Counted from the stretch's first letter, positions 17,882-56,122 are shown. The stretch is DNA of 64,000 nucleotides from Nannocystis sp. RBIL2 (GCF_026626745.1 NZ_JAPNJW010000001.1:908311-972310); one strand, 5' to 3'. Numbers and translations: made by a program. The notes: generated by a model from the sequence alone, not told the origin.

Positions 17882-18532
17882 TCAATCGGCCTCGAAGATC
17901 ACCCGCTCGAAGTCACCCGACCCGTTGAGGTTCTCGGTCGTGCCGCAGCGATAGCCAGTGCCGATCTCGTTGCCGAGGGTGTGCCAGCACAGGCGCATAT
18001 TGGAGTTGGCCTCCGGACCGCCGAATTGAGTGTCGCACTCCGTACGATTCACCGCATCGCCCGCCTGCGCGAAGCCCCACGACCAATTGTCGCTGAAGTA
18101 CCAGGCGACCCCGTTGGCCTCGTGCTTGCCGGTGAGCTGGGTGCCGACGTCGAACAGAACGTCCGCGCGCTCCCCCATCGCCAGCAGCTGGAAATTGGGC
18201 GCGCCGACCTGGCGACAGGCCATGAGGAGCTTCGACCCGGTGCAATCCTGGCCGAGGATCGTCCCGGTGAGGTCGGGCTCGGACTCGCCGTAGATATTCG
18301 AGAAGCACTCGGTCCAGCCGACCAGGTCGCCCGCGGGCACGTCCGCCTGCGGTCCCTCCGCCCAGTACATCGGCTCCGGGCCGCCACCGTCGTCATCGTC
18401 ATCGTCATCGTCGTGGTCGTCGTTATCGTCGTGGTCGTCCTGGTCGTCGTGATCGTCGTGATCGACCTCGCAATTTTGAAGATAGGGGATTGTGCACAAT
18501 AGGCCGCTCAACGCGATCGTGGTGAAGTTCAT
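17882..18532 (-). CDS. hypothetical secreted protein with acidic (DHDD)n His/Asp repeat
   Basis: Met at 18532 with a GGAGAA RBS 5 nt upstream. The signal peptide is MNFTTIALSGLLCTIPYLQNC, followed by DHDDHDDQDDHDDNDDHDDDDDDDDGGG and a Cys-containing globular domain. Confidence 0.55.
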   Translation of the reverse strand: MNFTTIALSGLLCTIPYLQNCEVDHDDHDDQDDHDDNDDHDDDDDDDDGGGPEPMYWAEGPQADVPAGDLVGWTECFSNIYGESEPDLTGTILGQDCTGSKLLMACRQVGAPNFQLLAMGERADVLFDVGTQLTGKHEANGVAWYFSDNWSWGFAQAGDAVNRTECDTQFGGPEANSNMRLCWHTLGNEIGTGYRCGTTENLNGSGDFERVIFEAD

Positions 18533-18705
18533 GGGATTCTCCGGGCGCCTCGAATATGCGACACGTCGCAGGGGCGGCAACGATGAAGGTTGACGCCGCG
18601 CACGTCTCTCCGCCCCTACTCGAGCACGCCCCGAGCCCACGGCGTTCTGCAAGCTTGTCCAACACGCTCGCGCTCGCGCCACGAAGTTCCCCGCGCACCC
18701 GGCCG

Positions 18706-18968
18706 CGCCGAAAGCTCGCGAGAAAGCGTCGATGCGACGGCCAGCCCTGGCCGTCGCATCGACGCCGACGTCCTGCCTTTCGGGCGCGCTCCCGAACGGA
18801 GCCGAGTCCGGCGCGGCGGCTCCTCACGGCTGCAGCCGTGCCCGGGGTCCGGGGAAGGGCCGGCCGCGAATTAGAGACAGGATGGGCGCGAGGAACGAGC
18901 GTCCATCCTGTCGGTCAACTCGCGGCCGGACCTTCCCCGGACCCCCCGCGAGGCGCAGCCGGCAATTA
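18706..18968 (-). ncRNA. candidate structured RNA / 3'-UTR-terminator module, copy 1 of a duplicated roughly 260-bp element
   Basis: It is about 80% identical to 48651-48909 and contains four hairpins. The differences between copies are compensatory, for example a 15-bp stem cgatgcgacggccag/ctggccgtcgcatcg versus ctgttcggcggccag/ctggccgccgaacag. It begins 28 bp after the pfkB-family gene stop on the minus strand. On the minus strand it ends in a GC hairpin followed by CGCUUUCUCGCG. Confidence 0.4.
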
Positions 18969-18996
18969 GCGAAGCCCCCGCGCTACTCCCCGAGCC

Positions 18997-19938
18997 TCAG
19001 GTCAAGCTCGCGCGCGCAAAGTTCGTCAGCGCAGCGAACGTCTCGAAGCGCTTCTGGATCGTCGCCGCATCGAGCCCCTTCAGCCGGTCGTACGAGAACC
19101 CCTCGACGCAGAACGAAGCCATCACCGACCCGTAGATCATCGCGGTGCGCAGCGAGGCCCCGCTGGTCTCCACCCCTGGGCGGGCCAGATAGCCCATGAA
19201 GCCGCCCGCGAAGCTGTCGCCAGCGCCCGTCGGGTCGACCACGTCTTCGAGCGGCAGCGCCGGCGCCGAGAACATCTCACCGTCCGCGTCGAACAGCAGC
19301 GCCCCGTACTCACCGCGCTTGATCACCACGTTGCGGGGACCGAGGGCCCGGATCGCGCGGGCTGCCTTCACGATGTTGTGCTCGCCGCTGAGCTGGCGGG
19401 CCTCCTCGTCGTTGAGGGTCAGCACGTCCACGTTCTTGAGCACCGCCTTGAGGTCGTCGTTGGCGATCGAGATCCACAGGTTCATCGTGTCGAGGCCGAC
19501 CAGGCGGGGCCGATGCATCTGCGCGAACACGTCGCTCTGCAGGCGCGGCTGGATGTTGGCCAGGAACAGGAACTCGCTGCCGCGGAACTCGTCCGGCAGG
19601 CGCGGCTGGAACTTCTCGAACACGTTGAGGTGCGTCTCGAGCGTCGTCCGGTCGTTCATGTTCTCGTGGTACTGGCCCTTCCAGCGGAAGGTCAGCCCGT
19701 CCTGCACGATCTCGAGGCCAGAGGTGTCGACGCCTGCGGCCTTCAGGTCGGCCACCGCGTAGTCGGGGAAGTCGCGCCCGACCACGCCGACCAGCCGCAC
19801 CTGGGACAGGTACGACGCCGCCATCGCGAAGAAGGTCGCCGACCCGCCGACGCTCTCGGGCCGCTCGGCGCGGGGCGTGATGATCCAGTCGATGGCGACG
19901 CTGCCGACGACGACGAGGTGGGGCTTACTGACGGTCAT
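18997..19938 (-). CDS. PfkB-family carbohydrate/nucleoside kinase
   Basis: It has a ribokinase-like fold with the signature DPTGAGDSFAGGFMGYLA near the C-terminus and an N-terminal GS/VAxD motif. It is probably co-transcribed downstream of mtnP. Confidence 0.8.
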   Translation of the reverse strand: MTVSKPHLVVVGSVAIDWIITPRAERPESVGGSATFFAMAASYLSQVRLVGVVGRDFPDYAVADLKAAGVDTSGLEIVQDGLTFRWKGQYHENMNDRTTLETHLNVFEKFQPRLPDEFRGSEFLFLANIQPRLQSDVFAQMHRPRLVGLDTMNLWISIANDDLKAVLKNVDVLTLNDEEARQLSGEHNIVKAARAIRALGPRNVVIKRGEYGALLFDADGEMFSAPALPLEDVVDPTGAGDSFAGGFMGYLARPGVETSGASLRTAMIYGSVMASFCVEGFSYDRLKGLDAATIQKRFETFAALTNFARASLT

Positions 19939-22647: not shown

Positions 22648-25600
22648 TCATGTCCTTTCAGACATGTCCTTTGCGCCATCCCGTTGCCTCGGCCGCACCA
22701 GCGACGCAGCGCACGGCAGCACCAGCAGCGTCAGGAACAGCGTCGACACCAGCCCGCCGACCACCACAGTCGCCAGCGGCCGCTGCACGTCGGAGCCGAT
22801 CCCGGTCGCCCGCGCCGCGGGGACCATCCCGAGCAGCGCGACCAGGATCATGAGCAGCAACGGGCGCACCGCCCGGGCGGCCCCCTGCACCGTGTCCTCG
22901 CCCGCGTCGCCGCCGGCCGCGACCGCGCGGATCGACTCGACCAGCAGCACCCCGCTCATCACCGCCACGCCGAACAGCGACACCATCCCGACCGCCGCCG
23001 ACACGCTGAGGTGGATCCCGCGCAGCCACAGCGCGAGCACCCCGCCGAGCAACGAGAACGGCACGCACGCCAGCACCAACAGCGCCCAGCGCAGCGAGCG
23101 GAAGGTGAAGCACAGCAGCGACAGGATGATGCCCAGCGTCAGCGGCAAGATCACCACCAGACGTCGCCGCGCCCGCGCCAGGTTCTCGAACTGCCCGCCC
23201 CACTCGACCCGGTAGCCCGGCGGCAGCTGCAGCGTCGCCTGCAGCCGCCGCTGCGCCTCGGCGACGAAGCTGCCCTGGTCGCGCCCGCGGATGTTGGTGC
23301 GCACGGTGACCTGGCGGTGGTTCTCGCGCCGGGCGATGATCGTCGCGCCCTCGACCAACTCGATGTCGGCGACCTCGGCCAGCGGCACCCGACCGCCGCG
23401 GCGCGGCGTGATCATCAAACGCCCGATCGCCTCCCCGCTGGCGCGCGCCTCCGGGATGAACCGCAGCGCCGCCGCGAACCGCCGCGAGCCCTCGTACACC
23501 GTGGCGATCGGCCGCCCGCCGATCGCCAGGCTCACCAGCTGCTGCACGTCCGACACGTCGACCCCGTAGCGCGCCATGTCGGCCCGCCGCAGGCGCAGCC
23601 GCAGCTGCTCCTGCGCCGCCTCCTGCTCGATCGCGGTGTCGGCCGCCCCGGCGATCCCGGCCACCAGCGCGCGGCTCTGCACCGCCAGCCGCCGCAGCTC
23701 GTCGAGGTCGGGGCCGCGGAGGATGATCGCCAGATCGGCCGACGACCCGGTCGCCGCCTCGGTCGCGTTGTCGAGGATCGGCTGGGTGAAGCTGAACGTG
23801 GCGCCGGGGATCGCCGCTCGCAGCCGCCGCGCCAGCGCCTCGACCAGGTCGGCCTTGACCTGTCCCTTCGGCCACGTTTCGTACGGCTGCAGGTCGACCA
23901 AAAATTCGTTGCGGTTGGGCCCGTACGGGTCGGTGCCCGAGTCGTTGCGCCCGGTCTGCGAGGCGACCCGCCGGACCTCGGGCGACTGCAGCACCAGGCC
24001 CCGGATCGTCGTCGCGATCTCGGCCGACTTGAACAGCGACAGCCCGCGCGGCAGGTTGCAGCGGATCCAGATCGACCCCTCGTCGAGCTGCGGGAGGAAC
24101 TCGGTGCCGACGCGGCGACCCACCAGCACCAGCGCCGCCACAGTCATTACCGCCGCCACTGCCACCACCGGTCTGGCGCGCCGCACGAGGCGCCGGACCA
24201 GCCCCGCGTAGCCGGCCGCGATCGCCGACATCACCCGGCTGGGGCGGCTCTTCACTCCGCGGCGGAACACGTAGCTCGCCAGCACCGGCGTCAGCGTCAG
24301 GCTCAGCAGCAGCGCGCCGAGCAGGGCAGTGCTGACGGTGAACGCCATCGGCGTGAACAGCCGCCGCTCGACCCGCTGCAGCATGAACAGCGGCAGATAC
24401 GCGGCGATGATGATCGCCAGCGAGAACCCGATCGGCCGCGCCACCTCGCGGGCCGCCGCACCGAACTCGCTCGGCTCGGCCGGCGCCCGCGGGTCGGGCC
24501 GCTGCTGCAGCCGGTGCACGATCGCCTCGACCATCACCAGAGTGCCGTCGACGATGATGCCGAAGTCGAGCGCCCCGAGGCTCAGCAGGTTGGCCGGGAC
24601 CCCGGCCAGCTTCATGCACACGAACGCGAACAGCAGCGACAGCGGGATCATCAGCGCAGTCAGCAGCGCCGCGCGCACGCTGCCGAGCAGGAGCACCAGC
24701 ACGAACACGACGATGGTCACCCCCTCGGCCAGCGTGCGCGAGACCGTGCGCAGCGTCCGACCGACCAGCTCGCTGCGGTCGTAGAAGCCCTCGATGCGGG
24801 CCCCGGCCAGCTCCTCGCCGGCGTTCAGCGCGTCGACGCGGGCGTGGATGCCCCGCAGCACCTCGCTCGGGTTCTCCCACCGTCGCATCAGCACCACGCC
24901 CTCGACCCCGCCCTGGGCCGCGTCGAGGCCGAAGATCCCGGTCGGCGGCGCCGGGCCGATCCGCACCGTGGCGGCGTCGCGGACGAAGATCGGCACCCCG
25001 TCGTCGACCCCGACCAGCGTCGATGCGATGTCCTCGGCGGTCTGCAGCTGGCCGACGCTGCGCACCGCGATCGACTGCTGACCGTTGTCGATCACCCCGC
25101 CGCCCGCGTTCTCGTTGTTGTCCTCGATCGCCGCCGCGATGTCGTCGATCGACAGGTGGAACTTGTCGAGCGCGAGCGGGTCGAGCTCGACCTGGTACTG
25201 CCGGACCTCGCCGCCGAACGTGACGACGTCGGCCACCCCGGGCGCCTGCAGCAGCCGCGGCGCCACCACCCAGTCCTGCAGCGTGCGCAGCTGCATCGTC
25301 GTCAGCGTGGCGCTCACCAGGTGGTAGCGGAACATCTCGCCGATCGCCGTCGACATCGGCCCGAGCGACGACTCCACCCCCGGCGGCAGATCGGCGTCGC
25401 GCAGCTTCTCGAGCACCACCTGGCGCGCGACCAGATCGTCGATCGCGTCGTCGAAGGTCAGCTCGACCACCGACAGGCCGAAGATCGTCCGCGAGCGGCG
25501 GCCGATCACGTGCGGCACGCTGCCGAGGGACCGCTCGATCGGCACCGTGACCAGCTGCTCGACCTCCTCCGCCGCGTAGCCCGGCAGCGTCGTGATCACC

Positions 25601-33749: not shown

Positions 33750-35786
33750 GTGCCACGCGCTCGCGCCACGCTCTGCACCTGCCTCGCGGCGTGCCTGTGG
33801 GCCTCGCCCGGCCAGGCCGCGCCCGCGGTGGTCCCCCCGAGCCCGCGGACCCGCGTCGACGCCGTCTATCCGCTCGCCGAGGCGCGCAGCGACGCCGTCG
33901 CGGTCGAGCTGGCCGTCACCGTCGAGGCCGACGGCCGGGTCGGCGCCGTCGAGGTCCTGAAGAGCGGCGGCGCGGCCTTCGACGACGCCGCAGTCGCCGC
34001 GGTCAAGCAGTGGCGGTTCGACCCGGCGCGCCGCGACGACGTCGCGGTGGCCGTCAAGATCCGCGTGCCCTTCAACTTCGCCCCGCCGGCCCAGCCCGCC
34101 GAGGCGCCCGCGGGTGAACCTGCCCCTTCGGCCCCACCCGGACAACCTGGCCCTTCGGCCAGCCCGCCAGGTCCGTCGCAACCTGCCCCTCCGGACAGCC
34201 AGCCGGGCCCGTCTCAACCCGCCCCTTCAGCCGGCCAGCCAGGCCCGTCTCAACCTGCCCCTTCGGCCAGCCCCACCCGACCTGCCCCCTCGGACAGCCA
34301 GCCGGGCCCGTCGCAACCTGCCCCTTCGGCCAGCCAGCCCGAGCCGGTGCTCGACGTCGCCGCGCGCAGCCGCCGGCCGCCGCCGCGGGCCGCCAGCGAC
34401 TTCGTCGTCGAGCGCGACGTCCTCGCCGCCCCGCCGCGGCAGAGCGCCGCCGACATGCTGAGCAGCGCCCCCGGCGTCTACGTCGCGCGGGCCGAGGGCG
34501 AGGCCGTCGCGCACGAGATCACCCTGCGCGGCTTCAACGCGGCGCACGGCCAGGACATCGAGATCACCGCCGGCGCCTTGCCGCTGAACCAGGTCTCGCA
34601 CCTGCACGGCCAGGGCTACGCCGACCTCAACTGGATCGTCCCCGAGACGGTGCGATCGATCCGCGTCACCGAGGGCGTCTACGACCCGCGGCAGGGCGAC
34701 TTCGCGGTCGCCGGCAGCATCGACTTCGACCTCGCCGTCCCGCGCCGCGGCATCCAGCTGCGCAGCACCGGCGGCTCCTTCGCCACCTTCCGCCAGCTCG
34801 TCCTGTGGGCCCCCAAGGGTCAGGACGACGAGACCTTCGCCGCCGCCGCGGTCCGCCGCACCCGCGGCTTCGGCATGAACCGCGGCGGCCTCTCGGGCAT
34901 GGCCATGGGCCAGTTCGCCTTCTCGGCCGCGGGCGGCTGGCGCGGCAAGGTCCACGTCGCCGCCTACGCCGCGCGGGCCGGCCTCGCCGGCGTCCTGCGC
35001 CGGGACGACGTCGCCGCCGGCGCCGTCGGCTTCTACGACAGCTACGGCGACCCCTCGGCCAACAGTCAGTCCGCCTCGGCCGCGCGCGGCCACCTCTCGC
35101 TCGAGCTCCAGCGCCGCGGCGAGGGCGGGGCGGTCACCCGCATGGCCGTGTGGACCGCCCTCGTCGACTTCCACAGCCGCGAGAACTTCACCGGCTACAC
35201 CCAGCGCGGCGTCGTCATGCCGCAGTGGGTCGGCCGCGGCGACCTCATCGAGCAGCAGAACCGCGACTTCGGCGGCGGCATGCGCCTGTCCCATCGGACA
35301 GCCGGCTGGCGCCCCGCCCCGTGGTTCCACGCCGCCCTCGAGGTCGGCGCGGCCGCGCGGATCCACAACATCCAGCAGGCGCAGAACCTCTTGCAAGCGC
35401 CGCAGAACGAGACCTGGGACCGGCGCGTCGACGCCACCGTGCTCGCCAGCGACGTCGGCCTCTACGGCGACCTCGACCTCCGCTTCGGCAAGCGCGTGCG
35501 CTTGCGCGGCGGCGGTCGGGCCGACGTCCTCCACTACGACATCGACGACCGCCTCGGCAACTTCATCGCCCCCTACCAGATCGAGAGCCACCTCGTCGGC
35601 CACCGCCGCACCGCCACCGGCGTGGCCGCCGGCCCGCGCGTCAGCCTCGAGGTCGCGCCTGTCCCTTGGGTCAGCCTGTTCGCCGCCTACGGCCAGGGCT
35701 ACCGCTCGCCGCAGGCGCGCCAGCTCGACGAGGGCGAGCGGGCTCCGTTCGCCAAGGTCCACAGCACCGAGGCGGCGTGCGCATGA
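33750..35786 (+). CDS. TonB-dependent receptor-like protein with N-terminal TonB-C-like domain and Pro-rich repeat linker (N-terminal 678-aa portion)
   Basis: It has a GTG start and signal peptide. The N-terminus carries a TonB C-terminal-like domain (YPLAEARSDAVAVELAVTVEADGRVGAVEVLKSGGAAFDDAAVAAVKQWRFDPARRDDVAV). Six 36-bp PAPSASQPGPSQ repeats follow, then plug-like motifs (MLSSAPGVYVARAEG...ITLRGFNA) and beta-barrel strands. The frame ends at TGA 35784-35786. Confidence 0.65.
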   Translation: MPRARATLCTCLAACLWASPGQAAPAVVPPSPRTRVDAVYPLAEARSDAVAVELAVTVEADGRVGAVEVLKSGGAAFDDAAVAAVKQWRFDPARRDDVAVAVKIRVPFNFAPPAQPAEAPAGEPAPSAPPGQPGPSASPPGPSQPAPPDSQPGPSQPAPSAGQPGPSQPAPSASPTRPAPSDSQPGPSQPAPSASQPEPVLDVAARSRRPPPRAASDFVVERDVLAAPPRQSAADMLSSAPGVYVARAEGEAVAHEITLRGFNAAHGQDIEITAGALPLNQVSHLHGQGYADLNWIVPETVRSIRVTEGVYDPRQGDFAVAGSIDFDLAVPRRGIQLRSTGGSFATFRQLVLWAPKGQDDETFAAAAVRRTRGFGMNRGGLSGMAMGQFAFSAAGGWRGKVHVAAYAARAGLAGVLRRDDVAAGAVGFYDSYGDPSANSQSASAARGHLSLELQRRGEGGAVTRMAVWTALVDFHSRENFTGYTQRGVVMPQWVGRGDLIEQQNRDFGGGMRLSHRTAGWRPAPWFHAALEVGAAARIHNIQQAQNLLQAPQNETWDRRVDATVLASDVGLYGDLDLRFGKRVRLRGGGRADVLHYDIDDRLGNFIAPYQIESHLVGHRRTATGVAAGPRVSLEVAPVPWVSLFAAYGQGYRSPQARQLDEGERAPFAKVHSTEAACA

Positions 35787-36469: not shown

Positions 36470-36760
36470 GCATCGCCTTCCGACTCCGCGCGCCTCTCCG
36501 CCGCCTGCCCTCGGAGCCCGTTCCCGACCACCGCTTCCCCACGCGCATCGCCGCCCGACTCCGCGCCCTCTCCGCCGCCTGCCCTCGGAGCCCGTCCCCG
36601 AACGTCGCTTCCCCTCGCGCATCGCCGCCCGCTCCACGCCTCACATGAGTCGCCGCCCTCTCCATCGGGCCCGCCGCACCGACCCTCATCGCTCCTCACC
36701 CCGCCTCGCCTCATCAGCTGTCCCTTCGCACCTGTCCTCTCGCACCTGTCCCTTGTTACC
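36470..36760. repeat. tandem roughly 70-bp direct repeats (2.5 copies) plus three CTGTCC half-site units between receptor and lipoprotein genes
   Basis: The unit gcatcgcc...ccgcctgccctcggagcccgt(t/c)cccga...cgcttcccc repeats at 36470, 36541 and 36611. It is followed by cagctgtcccttcgcacctgtcctctcgcacctgtcccttg. Confidence 0.6.
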
Positions 36761-36773
36761 GGCCCTTTCGCCC

Positions 36774-37502
36774 ATGTCCCTCCGACCAGCCATGCTCCTC
36801 CTGCTCTGCGCCGCCTGCGGCGCCACCGGCGAGCCGGCCTTTCAGGCCCCGCTGCGGGCGCGAGGGGCCGCGGCCGAGCTGACCGCGGGCGCCTGGACAG
36901 TGACCCTCACGCGAGCAGAAGTCGGCCTCGGCCCGCTCTACCTGTGCGCCACCGCGGCCGCCTCCTCCGAGCTGTGCGCCACCGCGGCCGCCGAGTTCGC
37001 AGCGGTCGCCCCCGTCGACCTGCTCGACCTCGGCCCGCAGCCGCTCGGCGAGCTCGACGTCCTGCCCGGCCAGGTCCGCTCGGCCATGCTCGACTACGGC
37101 GTCACCTGGCTCAAGACGCAGGCCAAGCCGGGCGCTCAGGACGGCGCGCCGGGCCGGCGCGCCGCCCGGTTCGCCGGCACGGCTGTCTCTGCGGACATGT
37201 CCTTCGAGTTCACCGCCGACCTCGACGTCGCCCCCGTGCTCCGCGGCAGCCGCACCATCGAGGGCCTGCGGATCGGCCCCTTCGACCTCGACGTCGGCGG
37301 CGCGCTCGACGTCACGATCGACGGCGCCGCCTGGTGGGCCGGCGTCGAATTCGACGCCCTCGCCGCGCTCGGCCCCGGCCCGCACGACCTCGCCGCCCTG
37401 GCCGCCGAAGATCCGGCCTCGCCCGCCGCCGACGCCCTGGCCGCCGTCCGCTTCGCCATGATCGCCGTCCCGCCGCGGTTCGCCTGGACCGCCGAGGAAT
37501 GA
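36774..37502 (+). CDS. hypothetical lipoprotein in the TonB-system cluster
   Basis: MSLRPAMLLLLCAACGATG gives a lipobox. The protein is 242 aa, and the exbB start follows 5 nt after its stop. Confidence 0.55.
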   Translation: MSLRPAMLLLLCAACGATGEPAFQAPLRARGAAAELTAGAWTVTLTRAEVGLGPLYLCATAAASSELCATAAAEFAAVAPVDLLDLGPQPLGELDVLPGQVRSAMLDYGVTWLKTQAKPGAQDGAPGRRAARFAGTAVSADMSFEFTADLDVAPVLRGSRTIEGLRIGPFDLDVGGALDVTIDGAAWWAGVEFDALAALGPGPHDLAALAAEDPASPAADALAAVRFAMIAVPPRFAWTAEE

Positions 37503-38647: not shown

Positions 38648-38880
38648 CATCACATGTCCTTCGGGACAGCCTCCGGCGCGCCCGACACGGCTCATCACCT
38701 GTCTCTCGGGCCATCCTCCCCCGCGCCCGCACGAGCTCTGCCGCGAGCCCTCGCCCGAGCGAGCGCCGCCACGCCTCATCGCCTGTCCTTCGGGCCATCC
38801 TCCGCCGCGCGAGCTCAGGCGCCCGCGCGAGCCCTCGCGCGAGCGAGTGCCGCCGCTCCCCACCTGTCCTTGAAAAAATC
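38648..38880. repeat. tandem roughly 84-bp repeats, each headed by a CATCAC(C/A)TGTCCTTCGGG hairpin-family unit, in the exbD-tonB spacer
   Basis: The units are catcacatgtccttcgggacagcctcc, catcacctgtctctcgggccatcctcc, ctcatcgcctgtccttcgggccatcctcc and cacctgtccttgaaaaaa. Units 2 and 3 are full 84-bp tandem copies. Confidence 0.6.
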
Positions 38881-39735: not shown

Positions 39736-39783
39736 TTCCGCCTGCACTTCGGGACATGTCCTGAAGACCACTCCATCGCCGCC

Positions 39784-46748: not shown

Positions 46749-48335
46749 GTGAGACGACCCGTGCCCACTTCCCGAACGCACCGCAGCCCGATCGCCTCCG
46801 CGGCGAGGGCCTGCCTCGCCGTGGTTCTCACCTGTCCTTTCGTACACCTCGGCTGCCTCCTCGATCCCAGCCCGCTGGGCGAGCTCCCGGGCGACACCGA
46901 CGGCCCTGACACCGTCGAGCTCGATACCCTCGTCGTCACCTCGCAGCACGTCGACGACACCACCGTCGGTCCGCTGCCGACCACCACCGCCGAGCCGGGC
47001 ACCACCGGCGACCCGCCCGACGGCACCACCGGTGAGCCCGTCACCACCGGCGACGATCCGCCGCCGGAGACCGGCTGCATCGACGGCGGCGCCTGCGAGC
47101 AGCTCGACGTCCTGTTCGTCATCGACAACTCCGGCACCATGGGCGAGGAGCAGAGCCAGCTCGCCGACAGCTTCCCTGCCTTCGTCTCGCTGCTGCGCGG
47201 CCTCAGCGACGCCAACGGTCAGCTCGTCGGCGCCGACGTGCACATCATGGTCACCACCACCGACGTGCCGCACCCGCTGTGCACGCCGTTCGAGAAGCCC
47301 GACTACGACGCCGCCGACGGCCAGCCGATCGACACCCCGTGCACCGACCGGCTGGCGCGGTTTACCGGCCTCGGCGCCGATCCGCCGGTGATGTCCGAGA
47401 TCTGCACCTCGCGCTGCTCCGAGGCCGCCCCCTCGATCCCCACCGATCCGTTCATCCGCTTCAGCCCCACCAGCCACAACATCATCGACCCTGACGGCAT
47501 GGGCGACCCCGCGGCCGACGCCCTCGCCTGCATCGGCCCCCAGGGCATCGACGGCTGCGGCATGGAGTCGCCGCTCGAGGCCATGCTGCGCGCGCTCGAC
47601 CTCGAGGCGCGGTGGAACATCGGCGAGCGGCCCTTCTTGCGCCCCGGCGCCCCGCTGGCGGTCGTCCTCGTCACCGACGAGACCGACTGCTCCACCCTCA
47701 ACTTCGCCTACTTCGACCCCAAGCTGCACGACGACCCCGAGTTCAGCAAGTACTGGCCGTCCCACCCGAGCAGCGGCCAGCGGACCGAGCCCACCAGCGC
47801 CGTGTGCTGGAACGCCGGCATGACCTGCGCCGACGACGACGACGACGGCGAGTACGAGTGGTGCATGTCCGAGGACAAGCACGTCCTCCAGCCCGTCGCC
47901 CGCTACACCGAGGCCCTCGCCGGCCTGCGCCAGCTCCACGGCAAAGAAGTCGTCATGCTCGTCCTCGGCGGCGTCCCTCAGGTCACCGAGCACAACCAAG
48001 CCCCTCCGTTCGAGCCCCTCGTCGGCGGCGTCGACGCCCTCGTCTACCGCGACTGGCAGCCCGACGACATCCTCCCCGGCGACAGCGACACCCCCGCCGA
48101 CAAGCAGTTCGAGTTCGGCATCGGCCCCGGCTGCGTCGGCCCCGCCGGCCAGGCCGTCCCGCCCGGGCGGATCCAGGAAGTCTGCCAGTCGCTCGACATC
48201 CCCGACGACCCCGACACCGCCGTCAACGAACGCGCCATGCGCTGCTGCATCGAGTCCGTCTGCGACAGCGACTACACCCCCGCCCTCGGCTGCCTCGCCG
48301 GCATGCTGCAGCCGACCCTCCACGCCATGCCCTGA
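46749..48335 (+). CDS. hypothetical secreted vWA-like protein, last gene of the ECF operon
   Basis: It has a signal peptide, a T/P/G-rich linker and a DxSxT context (LFVIDNSGTMGEEQSQL) with many Cys pairs. The N-terminal signal-peptide codons contain a hairpin-family unit (ctcacctgtcctttcgtacacctc). Confidence 0.6.
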   Translation: MRRPVPTSRTHRSPIASAARACLAVVLTCPFVHLGCLLDPSPLGELPGDTDGPDTVELDTLVVTSQHVDDTTVGPLPTTTAEPGTTGDPPDGTTGEPVTTGDDPPPETGCIDGGACEQLDVLFVIDNSGTMGEEQSQLADSFPAFVSLLRGLSDANGQLVGADVHIMVTTTDVPHPLCTPFEKPDYDAADGQPIDTPCTDRLARFTGLGADPPVMSEICTSRCSEAAPSIPTDPFIRFSPTSHNIIDPDGMGDPAADALACIGPQGIDGCGMESPLEAMLRALDLEARWNIGERPFLRPGAPLAVVLVTDETDCSTLNFAYFDPKLHDDPEFSKYWPSHPSSGQRTEPTSAVCWNAGMTCADDDDDGEYEWCMSEDKHVLQPVARYTEALAGLRQLHGKEVVMLVLGGVPQVTEHNQAPPFEPLVGGVDALVYRDWQPDDILPGDSDTPADKQFEFGIGPGCVGPAGQAVPPGRIQEVCQSLDIPDDPDTAVNERAMRCCIESVCDSDYTPALGCLAGMLQPTLHAMP

Positions 48336-48414
48336 AGGACATGCTCCACAGGCCATGTCCTCGGCGACATGGCCTTCAAGCATGCCCTTCAGACCATGCG
48401 CACGGAAGCGACCC

Positions 48415-48640
48415 CCGACTCACCGCCCGGCGACCGCCAGCCCGCCTCGCGCCGTGATGTCCACGCGCCGCCGCCCCCCGACCGCCAGCCGGCGCCGCGC
48501 CGTGATGCCCACGCGCCGACACCCCCCGATTGCCAGCCCGCGCCGCGCCGTGATGCTCACGCGCCTCCGCCCCACGACCGCCAGCCCTCACCGCGCCACG
48601 ACGCCGCGCCGCGCCACGACCCGCAGTCCCTCGCCGCGCG
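48415..48640. repeat. about 3.5 tandem copies of a 60-bp direct repeat
   Basis: The unit gaccgccagcc(c/g)gc(c/g)ycgcgccgtgatg(y)ycacgcgcc...cccc(c) repeats head to tail between the vWA-like gene and element copy 2. Confidence 0.6.
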
Positions 48641-48650
48641 GAGATGCCAC

Positions 48651-48909
48651 GCCGAAAGGACGCGAGAAAGCGTCTGTTCGGCGGCCAGCCCTGGCCGCCG
48701 AACAGGCGCCCCAGCTCTGCTCCCGACGACTGCCGCCAGCGAAGCCGAGGCGGCGTGGCGGCTTCTCACGGCTGCAGCCGTGCCAGGGGTCCGGGGAAGG
48801 GGCGGCCGCGAATTAGAGGCGAGATGGGCGCGAGGCACGAGCGTCCATCCCGCCGGTTAACTCGCGGCCGCTCCTTCCCCGGACCCCCCGCGAGGCGCAG
48901 TCGGCAATA
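48651..48909 (-). ncRNA. candidate structured RNA / 3'-UTR-terminator module, copy 2
   Basis: It is the homolog of 18706-18968 with covarying stems. It begins 16 bp after the stop (48925) of the minus-strand hydrolase gene. In this copy the a/c mismatch on the plus strand of one stem would be a U.G wobble on the minus strand. Confidence 0.4.
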
Positions 48910-48924
48910 CGCGAACCAGAGCAC

Positions 48925-51003
48925 CTACCCCGGATCGCAAACCCCCTCGCAAGAGTTCGAGACCACCCCCTCGAGCAAGAACGCCCCGAGGATCCCCTGC
49001 ACCGCCGGCTCGTCGACCGCCGCCCCGTGCGCCCCATTGTCCCCGGCCGCAGGCAGGTTCTCGACCGGAGGCAGCGGCCCCTTCTTCGTATCGACCTGCA
49101 GCAGCGCCGACCCCGTGAACCCCGGCGGAGCCTCCTCGATCCCCCACACCGGCCACACCGAAGGTCCTGCCATCCTCATCCCGTACGAGCGGGCCATCGC
49201 CTCCGACGCGATGTTTGCCACCTGTGCGTCGCCGATCGACTCGATGAGCAGCAGAGCATCGCCAGCCTCCTCGATCAGCGAGCGGTACGTCACCGGGTCT
49301 GCCACGTCGAACACTGCCTGGTACAGCGCGAACAGGAACTCGCGGTTCTGCGTGCTCGGCTGCGTCGCTGCCCACACCGAGTTCACCTGTTCGAACGCAG
49401 TCGAGCGCCACACCATCAGCGAGTAGTTCGACGCCCCGACCACCAGCACGCCGCGTCGCAGGTTCGGCGCCATCGCAGTCACCGTCGCCCCCATGATCCC
49501 GCCCTGCGACCCGCCGACGTAGTACACCGACGACGGGTCGATCAGCCCTTGCAGCGCCGGCTCCTGCGCCAGCTCGCCCTGGGCCAGATACGCCAGCGTC
49601 GTGAAGTTCACCGTCGACTGCACCAGTCGTTCGCCCAGCGTCCGGCCGCCGACGAAGTTGCCGCCGAGCATCCCGATCACCGCCGCGATGTCATCCTCCG
49701 ACATCCCCCAGAAGTCGGTCCCTGCCATGATGAGCGACCCGTTCTTCTTCGCCACCGACTCCGCCTCCGAGCCCGAGCCGAGCAGCCCGTGCCCGTACAC
49801 CGCCACCGGCGCCGGCGTCTTCGCCTCGTAGATCGCCTGCGGCACCGCGATCCAGAAGTTCGCGGTCGCGGTGTTCGAGCAGTCCGGCAGCCCCTCCGGA
49901 TCGCGGGCGAACACAGTCCCGGGCCCGCTGTTGCCCTCGAGGCAGCTCGGCACCGTGAACGTCCCGCGCACCACCAGCGGCACCTGCGTGCCCGGGAACT
50001 CGCTCACCTCCGCGATCGTGTAGCCGAGGTCCCCGGCCTCCGCGCTCGCCACGACCTGCGGCATGATCGCAGTGAAGTCGCGCTGCAGGTCCGCCTGCGT
50101 GTTCGTCGTGAAGTCCCACGCCAGCTGCAGCGACCCGCGATCGATCCCCGCGGCGGCCAGCGTCGCGAAGATCTCGTCGTAGCGTTCGCGCTCGGCCTCG
50201 AGCTGCGGCACGTCGGTCGTCAGCGCATCGCGCAGCGCGCGGAACAGCGGCGAGGTCGGGATCTCCTCGCCGTTTTTATCGCGCAGCCCGCGAACGGCGA
50301 CCACGTAGCGCTCGCCCGCACGCGGCTGTCGCATCGGCCGCACGAAGATCGTCTGTGGTTCGCCTGCCACGGCCGTCGCATCGACCTCCGCGAAGTATGG
50401 CCAGCGTTCCCCCGAGCTGACCTCGAGCAGCACGATCGGCGCCTCGTCGGCCAGCGAACTTCCGATGTCACCGAGCGGCGGCAGCGACGACCCGTCGATG
50501 GGCTGCGCCGACGCGAACCGGATCTGCGCGTTGGGAGTGAACCCCGGCTTCCCGTTGATGAACTCGTCTGCGGGGAACTCCGCCTGCTGCGTGTTCTTCG
50601 GCAGCAGCGCCGCCGGCAACGCCACTGCCAGGCCGGTCGGGCTGTCGCCTGACGACGTCGTGTAGAAGTTCGACGGCCACGGGTACACGCACTGGCCGCG
50701 GCCTGCGGGGTCGCCGAGCGGGTGGCAACCGGCCTCGATGTCCGCGCGACCGACGGCCTCGCAGCTCCCCCCGACGCACGCTTCGTCCGTCGCGCAGCCC
50801 TCGGGGCAACCGTCCTGCGCGCCAGTAGATCCGGAGCTGCCCGATGACGAGGTCGTTGGGACAGGTTCCGTCGGACCTGTCGTCTCGGACATCTCGGAGC
50901 TCGCCCCGGTGGTCGAGGCGCCGTCGGTCGCGCTGCTCACGGCCGGATCCTGGCAAGCGACGAGGCCGACGGTGACGAGGGATACGAGGCTCGATCTGCG
51001 CAC
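48925..51003 (-). CDS. secreted lipoprotein with alpha/beta-hydrolase-like nucleophile elbow
   Basis: It has a GTG start and the lipobox (VTVGLVAC), an S/T/G linker, an EGF-like Cys cluster and a roughly 550-aa domain containing VYYVGGSQGGIMGATV (a GxSxG-type elbow). Confidence 0.6.
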   Translation of the reverse strand: MRRSSLVSLVTVGLVACQDPAVSSATDGASTTGASSEMSETTGPTEPVPTTSSSGSSGSTGAQDGCPEGCATDEACVGGSCEAVGRADIEAGCHPLGDPAGRGQCVYPWPSNFYTTSSGDSPTGLAVALPAALLPKNTQQAEFPADEFINGKPGFTPNAQIRFASAQPIDGSSLPPLGDIGSSLADEAPIVLLEVSSGERWPYFAEVDATAVAGEPQTIFVRPMRQPRAGERYVVAVRGLRDKNGEEIPTSPLFRALRDALTTDVPQLEAERERYDEIFATLAAAGIDRGSLQLAWDFTTNTQADLQRDFTAIMPQVVASAEAGDLGYTIAEVSEFPGTQVPLVVRGTFTVPSCLEGNSGPGTVFARDPEGLPDCSNTATANFWIAVPQAIYEAKTPAPVAVYGHGLLGSGSEAESVAKKNGSLIMAGTDFWGMSEDDIAAVIGMLGGNFVGGRTLGERLVQSTVNFTTLAYLAQGELAQEPALQGLIDPSSVYYVGGSQGGIMGATVTAMAPNLRRGVLVVGASNYSLMVWRSTAFEQVNSVWAATQPSTQNREFLFALYQAVFDVADPVTYRSLIEEAGDALLLIESIGDAQVANIASEAMARSYGMRMAGPSVWPVWGIEEAPPGFTGSALLQVDTKKGPLPPVENLPAAGDNGAHGAAVDEPAVQGILGAFLLEGVVSNSCEGVCDPG

Positions 51004-55959: not shown

Positions 55960-56122
55960 GCCTGTCTGAAGAGACAGCCCGCCATGAAGCGCGGAGCGCC
56001 TGTCCGAAGCGACAGCCAAGCGCGGACCACCTGTCCGAAGAGACAGCCCATCACAGCCGCGAGCACCTGTCCGAAACGACAGCCCCTTCACGACCGAAGA
56101 GCGCCTGTCCGAAGCGACAGCC
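55960..56122. repeat. tandem array of five CTGTC-(c)GAAG(n)-GACAG hairpin units (period 31-38 bp)
   Basis: gcctgtctgaagagacagcc, cgcctgtccgaagcgacagcc, cacctgtccgaagagacagccc, cacctgtccgaaacgacagccc and cgcctgtccgaagcgacagcc, separated by related 12-19-nt spacers. Confidence 0.7.

Follow-up and report, generated by a model that had tools for sequence, protein, structure and literature searches.

The DNA at 48630-48920 of the window (the whole 64,000-nucleotide stretch of Nannocystis sp. RBIL2 analysed here, GCF_026626745.1 NZ_JAPNJW010000001.1:908311-972310) belongs to a dispersed, non-coding family of elements, about 285 nt in length, that is specific to Nannocystis and absent from public RNA family libraries. 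Comparison among the copies strongly supports a predicted, conserved fold of a single strand with two domains: a 5′ multi-hairpin domain, followed by a long 3′ hairpin with an invariant base.

The initial annotation took positions 48651-48909 for the second copy of a structured element near 18.7 kb, and in this it was correct. Pairwise alignment of 48630-48920 with 18687-18978 gives 89% column identity over about 285 nt, and the likeness stops at both edges. The limits had been drawn too narrowly: the conserved part begins some 20 nt earlier (about 48630) and stops some 10 nt later (about 48920). An nhmmer profile search of the window returned two copies only, at 48643-48918 and 18702-18977. 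The sister copy and the two ends of the element are as follows.

18687..18978, plus strand: copy 1, between a pfkB-family kinase gene (18997-19938, minus strand) and a small minus-strand gene; orthologs L002 and L014
48630..48642, plus strand: 5′ motif CTCGYCGCGGGAG, semi-conserved and near-palindromic, the left edge of family conservation (alignment A4 and flank listing)
48913..48920, plus strand: 3′ tail with a sharp right boundary, family consensus ...GGCAATTCGCGAAGC (alignments)

The flanks of the two copies are unrelated, in agreement with the earlier statement that the pair is not a segmental duplicate. Segmental duplication, or a chance likeness between GC-rich hairpins, has the high G+C content of the genome in its favour and nothing else; given these flanks, about 30 further copies elsewhere in five species, and a fold z-score of −10.5, it is an exceedingly improbable account. 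A protein-coding reading was likewise rejected. Long plus-strand ORFs do cross the element, but frame-breaking indels between copies, together with compensatory changes in the helices, mark them as spurious.

Distribution and fold of the family

An exact 28-mer of the element (CCTTCCCCGGACCCCCCGCGAGGCGCAG) occurs at 27 loci in a collection of species-representative genomes, all of them in Nannocystis and distributed over five species. Matches to the 28-mer by species were:

N. pusilla: 6
N. exedens DSM 71: 4 (loci L003, L018, L020, and L021)
N. radixulma: 11
N. punicea: 4
N. bainbridge: 3

Because an exact match to the 28-mer was required, these copy numbers are lower bounds (at least 3-11 per genome). 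Each locus holds a copy that is 75-94% identical over about 280 nt and set in unrelated flanks, as judged by blastn and nhmmer. A metagenome scan added two family copies, both from one metagenome. A scan of viral contigs yielded no true family match, its 18-mer matches being due to chance. Rfam 15 gave no match at gathering threshold anywhere in the window, and a permissive search of 48300-49000 returned sub-threshold hairpin noise of the miRNA type only, with no retron family.

The plus strand of the element has a minimum free energy (MFE) of −186.4 kcal/mol, corresponding to z = −10.5 relative to shuffled sequences; the minus strand has z = −8.5. RNAalifold, applied to 26-27 copies, predicts one and the same fold whether or not 30-45 nt of flanking sequence are included. 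Its parts are:

48646..48759, plus strand: 5′ domain, multi-hairpin, comprising P1, P2, and a hypervariable segment (RNAalifold, pair counts)
48646-48654 with 48751-48759, plus strand: P1, the long-range helix that closes the 5′ domain; 4 covarying pairs, one position being CG:15/AU:11
48670-48709, plus strand: P2, a 16-18-bp hairpin within the 5′ domain; 5 covarying pairs
48710-48750, plus strand: hypervariable segment of the 5′ domain
48761..48912, plus strand: 3′ domain, a long hairpin of about 152-154 nt made of P3, P4, an internal loop, and P5
48761-48783 with 48890-48912, plus strand: P3, the basal helix of the 3′ domain; invariant
48786-48811 with 48862-48887, plus strand: P4, the middle of the 3′ domain; 6 covarying pairs, the lower half never varying
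48823-48849, plus strand: P5, the apical hairpin of the 3′ domain; 6 covarying pairs

In alignment A4, standard pairs fill 98.7% of 1990 cells, and 21 of the 74 pairs have changed on both sides. None of 500 shuffles matched the observed values on any of five measures; as a control, sliding the partner by 1-3 columns lowered pairing to 35-45%. About 80 nt are identical across every copy from all five species, and this invariant core includes unpaired nucleotides. One segment, CGGCUGC, has alternative pairings available to it, either within a local palindrome or with the 3′ tail.

The earlier case for a genuine structured element had been tied to conservation of structure at orthologous loci. 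Such conservation is found: the fold and its compensatory changes are kept in the orthologs of the 48630 copy (L005 and L006) and in those of copy 1 (L002 and L014). Three degenerate members also were recovered. L013b (L013:6314-6495) has lost the P4/P5 hairpin, at profile positions of about 141-233; L018 (L018:4131-4349) lacks an internal part of the 3′ hairpin; and of L020 (L020:7158-7253) only the last 95 nt or so remain. L018 and L020 come from N. exedens, and their orthologs in N. punicea and N. radixulma are intact.

Which strand folds can be judged from the wobble pairs. In the strand-symmetric helices P1, P2, P4, and P5, G·U cells outnumber A·C cells by 69 to 8, a count in which many wobble cells are inherited and not independent events. 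The high-frequency wobble positions are all of the plus-strand type, and in 19 of 27 copies the plus-strand version of the 3′ domain is the more stable one (p = 0.0015). One fixed A·C in P4, read from the alignments, corresponds to G·U on the minus strand. The MFE of the whole element is equal for the two strands (−179.3 kcal/mol each), and is uninformative as a strand test. Taken together, the plus strand is probably the one that folds.

Inheritance and concerted evolution of the copies

Alignment of flanking sequences assigned copies to six orthologous sets:

W2 (the 48630 copy), L005, and L006
W1 (copy 1), L002, and L014
L001, L007, and L024
L008, L009, and L020
L011 and L018
L016 and L021

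Occupation of the same orthologous sites in several species indicates that these copies predate the species splits and were inherited vertically. The flanks in the window are closest to N. pusilla Na p29, at 96-97% identity. All sampled orthologous sites are occupied, among loci that were gathered by the element's own sequence, so that empty sites could not appear.

At third codon positions, the neighbouring genes of the genomes compared differ by 7-23%. Divergence between orthologous elements is about the same overall but very uneven: the core does not vary, one segment is hypervariable, and changes in the helices are compensated. When the elements are placed in a tree, close orthologs cluster, whereas distant orthologs group by genome and not by locus. 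For example, L006 shares 87-89% identity with further N. radixulma copies, against only about 81% with the ortholog in the window. That distant orthologs are closer to paralogs in their own genome indicates concerted evolution among the dispersed copies.

Some copies have short direct repeats at their junctions. Those of L007, L014, and L002 comprise CGCGAACCAGG / CGCTAACCCAGG, CGCGGAC, and CGAAGC (A4 columns 22-37 and 306-326). These could be old target duplications, or else the start of a further partial 5′ unit.

Such junctions bring to mind a decayed non-autonomous mobile element, either a MITE or a relative of the IS200/IS605 type, which would have spread in the Nannocystis ancestor and be immobile now, its hairpins having formerly been recognised by a transposase and serving no present function. 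The family does share with MITEs and with IS200/IS605 palindrome-associated elements (including orphan ends that bear guide RNAs) the form of a dispersed repeat of a few hundred nucleotides, with subterminal hairpins near both ends and a sharp 3′ boundary followed by variable sequence. The direct repeats that mark both junctions of the three copies (CGCG and 3-8 nt more) and the shortened or internally deleted copies L013b, L018, and L020 fit as well. However, no transposase, whether TnpA, TnpB, or another, was found among the genes neighbouring the copies, nor any recurrent neighbour gene. Terminal inverted repeats are unsupported by the flank-pairing and candidate-stem tests described below, the evidence for target duplications is equivocal (short direct repeats in few copies), and there is no sign of recent mobility. 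The orthologous sites sampled, at loci gathered by the element's own sequence, are all occupied. Moreover, 21 compensatory pairs have kept the fold well after any spread, and the wobble is strand-biased; both point to continuing selection and not to decay. A decayed mobile element is therefore improbable.

Tandem arrays and short palindromes

The initial annotation placed about 3.5 head-to-tail copies of a 60-bp repeat before the element, and saw in this region a clustering of three different repeat classes. A tandem array is indeed present, but its period is 48, and it is not a separate block: the unit at 48621-48654, the last in the row, is the 5′ end of the element itself (repeat family D3).

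48415..48654, plus strand: tandem array, period 48, about 5 units (TRF and repeat families D1-D3)

TRF reports the array at 48423-48597, with a period of 48, 3.6 copies, 84% matches, and a score of 245. Its units start at 48415, 48463, 48511, 48559, and 48601, at spacings of 48, 48, 48, and 42 nt; the 48-nt unit was found nowhere else in the window. The array thus represents local tandem amplification of the element's first 40 nt or so, a recurrent and fast-turning-over by-product of element ends, and three independent classes of repeat are not present.

Variation of the array among relatives, which had been put forward as a check, goes further than a change in copy number. The nearest relative, L005, has flanks that are 96% identical but lacks the array, carrying at the same site an unrelated spacer of 465 nt; L006 shows yet another arrangement. 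To survey other loci for end-derived arrays, TRF was run on the oriented flanks of 28 copies. Eight of these have an array that runs into the 5′ end of the element, with the following periods (nt) and copy numbers:

W2 (the 48630 copy): 48 × 3.6-5
L026: 57 × 11.4
L012: 55 × 4.4
L001: 190 × 2.5
L007: 83 × 2.2
L009: 16 × 6.2
L024: 40 × 2.5
L010: 14 × 2.7

In four of the 28 copies (L008, L026, L005, and L016), an array begins exactly at the 3′ end of the element. The units of these end arrays carry the element's own terminal sequence. Since periods and sequences differ by locus, each array arose independently from the conserved end; slippage or template switching at very stable hairpins is the inferred origin.

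The 5′ array of L026 lies on the minus strand at L026:480-1075, upstream of the copy at L026:199-475. Each of its 11.4 units of 57 nt joins the element's first 40 nt or so to a linker in which the 5′ palindromic motif recurs. At the 3′ end of this copy another array begins, 24 nt × 8.

Nested CATG palindromes had been noted near 48336-48412, and inverted repeats are confirmed there with slightly shifted limits.

48326..48398, no strand assigned: nested CATG palindromes forming a REP-like hairpin; starting at the upstream gene's stop codon and lying outside the element family

The outer arms, 48326-48345 and 48379-48398, are 85% complementary, and the inner arms, 48350-48359 and 48366-48375, are 100% complementary. 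The motif GGMCATGYC has 18 matches in the window against 2.5 expected (for example at 37193-37202, 39752-39761, and 48351-48374). These palindromes are a separate, genome-wide short motif and are not derived from the element. In other genomes, nested CATG hairpins lie just past stop codons beside many element copies. Similar hairpins are present in L005 and L006.

Another short REP-like hairpin motif, CCTGTCCYTYSGGSCAKCC, has 13 matches in the window where 0.03 would be expected; most of them fall within intergenic tandem arrays whose periods are 36-84. It is found at 34143-34339, 36718-36781, 38648-38854, and 55987-56122, and also at 22663, 29406, 35285, 35658, and 56764. Many element copies carry this motif in their hypervariable segment, as do the repeat units that precede L001.

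Gene context and a possible retron connection

The copy at 48630 lies between two genes that converge on it.

46749..48335, plus strand: upstream co-directional gene, 528 aa, with a TGA stop at 48333-48335 (GC3-based call); no Pfam match; orthologs at L005 (96%) and L006 (86%)
48925..51003, minus strand: convergent gene, 692 aa; no Pfam match; its stop is about 5 nt from the right end of the element

The element had been described as abutting the stop of a minus-strand gene, and so it does: the TAG of ORF 48925-51003 is about 5-16 nt beyond the element, depending on where the element is taken to end. The neighbours of the two window copies encode a pfkB kinase, a phosphorylase, a LysR regulator, and two proteins without a Pfam match. 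Just upstream of copy 1, the minus-strand ORF 17882-18682, also without a Pfam match, contains at 18388-18468 a 9-nt in-frame tandem repeat, TCGTGATCG, present seven times and also readable as 18- and 27-nt repeats.

Genes around the other copies were called by third-position G+C, and orthologous loci were collapsed, leaving 16 independent loci with neighbours on both sides:

Convergent intergenic region, element co-directional with the 5′ gene: 9 of 16
Element between two opposite-strand genes: 3 of 16
Element between two co-directional genes: 2 of 16
Element in a divergent region: 2 of 16

The gene at the right end converges on the element at 12 of the 16 loci, usually at a distance of 3-116 nt, and the 5′ neighbour is typically about 300 nt away. 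No gene family recurs beside the copies, the neighbouring proteins being unrelated across loci, and a simple scan found neither a sigma-70-like promoter nor a T-tract terminator. The link to the minus-strand gene implied by the initial annotation is uncertain: proximity to a convergent stop is typical, whereas the wobble pairs and the stability of the 3′ domain favour the plus strand.

A cis-acting repeat of the ERIC, REP, or BIME kind would suit this context. Its very stable hairpins, formed on transcripts from either direction, would act on the 3′ ends of flanking genes, above all of convergent ones, as terminators, insulators, or stabilisers, with no reverse transcriptase (RT) involved. REP, BIME, and ERIC-type repeats are short (about 30-130 nt), single, imperfect palindromes. 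Like them, the Nannocystis family is non-coding, multicopy, and lineage-restricted, lies at gene 3′ ends and between convergent genes, and has hairpins with compensation. The equal overall folding of the two strands, the lack of any promoter-like site in the scan and of recurrent neighbours, and the wealth of other small palindromic repeats in the same intergenic regions are in keeping with such a role. The element is nonetheless 2-10 times larger and far more complex, with two domains and a long-range helix. Its core of about 80 nt is invariant in five species whose third codon positions diverge by up to 23%, an invariance that a generic hairpin would not need. It has no T-tract terminator, its wobble polymorphism is strand-biased, and four of the 16 loci are not at a convergent or co-directional 3′ end in the expected sense. 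Element ends also seed arrays of their own sequence, and copies are fixed at orthologous sites and evolve in concert, in contrast to the ERIC and REP-BIME repeats. A cis-acting repeat is on balance unlikely, though it deserves serious consideration.

Another possibility comes from the genus itself. Lampson and Rice reportedly detected, by hybridisation, msDNA-like repeats in Nannocystis exedens in 1997. According to a passage in a review (PMC6868368), these repeats (Retron-Nex1/msDNA-Ne160) exist in several chromosomal copies, with no RT within about 1 kb, and have duplicated msr repeats. The present family may be this RT-less, msDNA-like repeat, acting as a template for a distant RT; we favour this identification tentatively, and place it somewhat below an even chance. 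It rests on that one review sentence (PMC6868368) plus resemblance, a comparison by description and not by sequence.

As far as the review passage describes the Ne160 repeats, the likenesses are several: the genus; a type strain, DSM 71, with at least four copies; dispersal; no RT nearby; a duplicated 5′ (msr-like) part; and a 3′ domain with tail amounting to 160 nt. Several copies are preceded by partial duplicates of the 5′ domain, which fits the “duplicated repeats of msr” and counts as a point for the Ne160 reading. In this copy the stretch that begins with P3 and runs to the conserved right boundary (48761-48920) is 160 nt, equal to the Ne160 length, a numerical coincidence rather than a mapped msDNA. 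Small 5′ hairpins followed by a long 3′ hairpin, and the size of the whole, parallel the order of parts in the Mx162 and Sorangium retron RNAs. Under the Ne160 reading, the plus strand of the element would be transcribed; the 5′ domain would take the role of msr, a handle recognised by an RT encoded elsewhere; and the sequence from 48920 back to 48761 (160 nt) would serve as msd, the template from which a small single-stranded DNA is made.

The search for an RT near the copies used phmmer with the Ec86 RT and six retron-type RTs as queries, against six-frame ORFs of the window and of 27 loci of 8 kb. No RT was found at E ≤ 1, including at the four element loci of N. exedens DSM 71 (L003, L018, L020, and L021); the Mx162 and Sorangium RTs, serving as positive controls, were detected at about 1e-39. 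With an Mx162 RT query (98% identical to the real protein), the best 120 matches stop at Sorangium. Among 50%-cluster representatives (more than 150 above 36% identity), ten were looked up and none came from Nannocystis.

A retron-type a1/a2 closing stem also was sought. RNAalifold predicted none with 30-45 nt of flank; pairing of own flanks was no stronger than that of cross-matched flanks (−27.6 versus −26.9 kcal/mol, p = 0.2); and three candidate terminal stems, S1-S3, reached only 74-80% pairing and showed no compensation. In retrons a conserved branching G, often within AGC, marks the foot of the a1/a2 stem. An invariant GCG, commonly preceded by A (GAGAAAGCG, at about 48662-48672), lies in the 5′ domain, but placing a branching G there lacks the a1/a2 stem as a reference. 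Neither an a1/a2 stem nor a branching G could be assigned in the family. Further points weigh against the Ne160 reading: similarity to validated Mx162-type RNAs was sought and not found; the RT searches described above reached no Nannocystis RT; the whole-element MFE is the same on both strands, and one fixed A·C would be G·U on the minus strand; and at most loci a convergent stop lies within 3-116 nt of the right end, a position at least equally suited to a cis-acting element at the 3′ ends of genes.

A bolder version of the Ne160 reading would make the copies live RT-less retron templates. One distant RT would then produce msDNA from many loci, and recombination of the cDNA would homogenise the copies and seed the arrays at their ends. 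This version is doubtful, with a small probability only; if true, it would be a natural form of retron “recombineering”.

The same fold and the same concerted evolution could also belong to a new large structured RNA unrelated to retrons, the copies being sibling trans-acting RNAs, protein scaffolds, or ribozymes, each with its own promoter. The large bacterial RNAs OLE, GOLLD, ROOL, HEARO, and raiA, whose function is unknown, are usually single-copy and phylogenetically wider in distribution. The element resembles these RNAs in exceeding 200 nt, in its covariation-supported fold of several helices, and in its invariant loop and helix nucleotides, some of them unpaired; its concerted evolution recalls multicopy RNA genes, and the alternative pairings of CGGCUGC may be added. 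It differs in being multicopy and limited to one genus. That it matches no Rfam model is a point in favour. On the other side, no conserved promoter was recognised, orthologs share no conserved sequence ahead of the element, and nothing indicates a specific partner or target. A new RNA class of this kind has a low probability.

Should the Ne160 identity prove true, a retron-type template can be multicopy and uncoupled from its RT, with a bearing on retron recognition in trans and on re-entry of msDNA into the genome. If the family is the repeat of Lampson and Rice, then the present analysis is its first genome-scale description, covering copy number in five species, fold, orthologous fixation, concerted evolution, and arrays. 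If it is not related to retrons, it is an unannotated intergenic repeat, unusually large and complex in structure, with an invariant core of 80 nt. On either view the element accounts for the 48-nt array, which is its by-product and no feature in its own right. No earlier description appears to exist of the fold, of the concerted evolution, or of the arrays derived from element ends, and the core sequences of the element had no match in literature full text; novelty is moderate because the 1997 hybridisation study may already have seen the family.

The label of canonical retron ncRNA was rejected. The element shares with the Mx162-type (type XIII) retron RNAs of Myxococcus and Sorangium the small 5′ hairpins, a 3′ hairpin of about 150 nt, an overall length of about 230-290 nt, and a myxobacterial host. 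However, each of its domains is closed by its own helix and no a1/a2 stem encloses them; no RT gene follows any of about 29 element copies; and the element is multicopy, whereas the retron is single. Neither nhmmer with the family profile nor blastn detected similarity to the Mx162 (L040) or Sorangium (L041) ncRNAs. Lacking both the a1/a2 stem and Mx162-type similarity, the family is not filed as a retron ncRNA.

The Mx162-type retron neighbourhood itself is alike in Myxococcus xanthus and Sorangium cellulosum (L040:1-4458 and L041:1-4476). In both, the genes upstream of the ncRNA and RT encode a giant WD40-repeat protein and another of about 620-640 aa, and the two ncRNAs are 75% identical.
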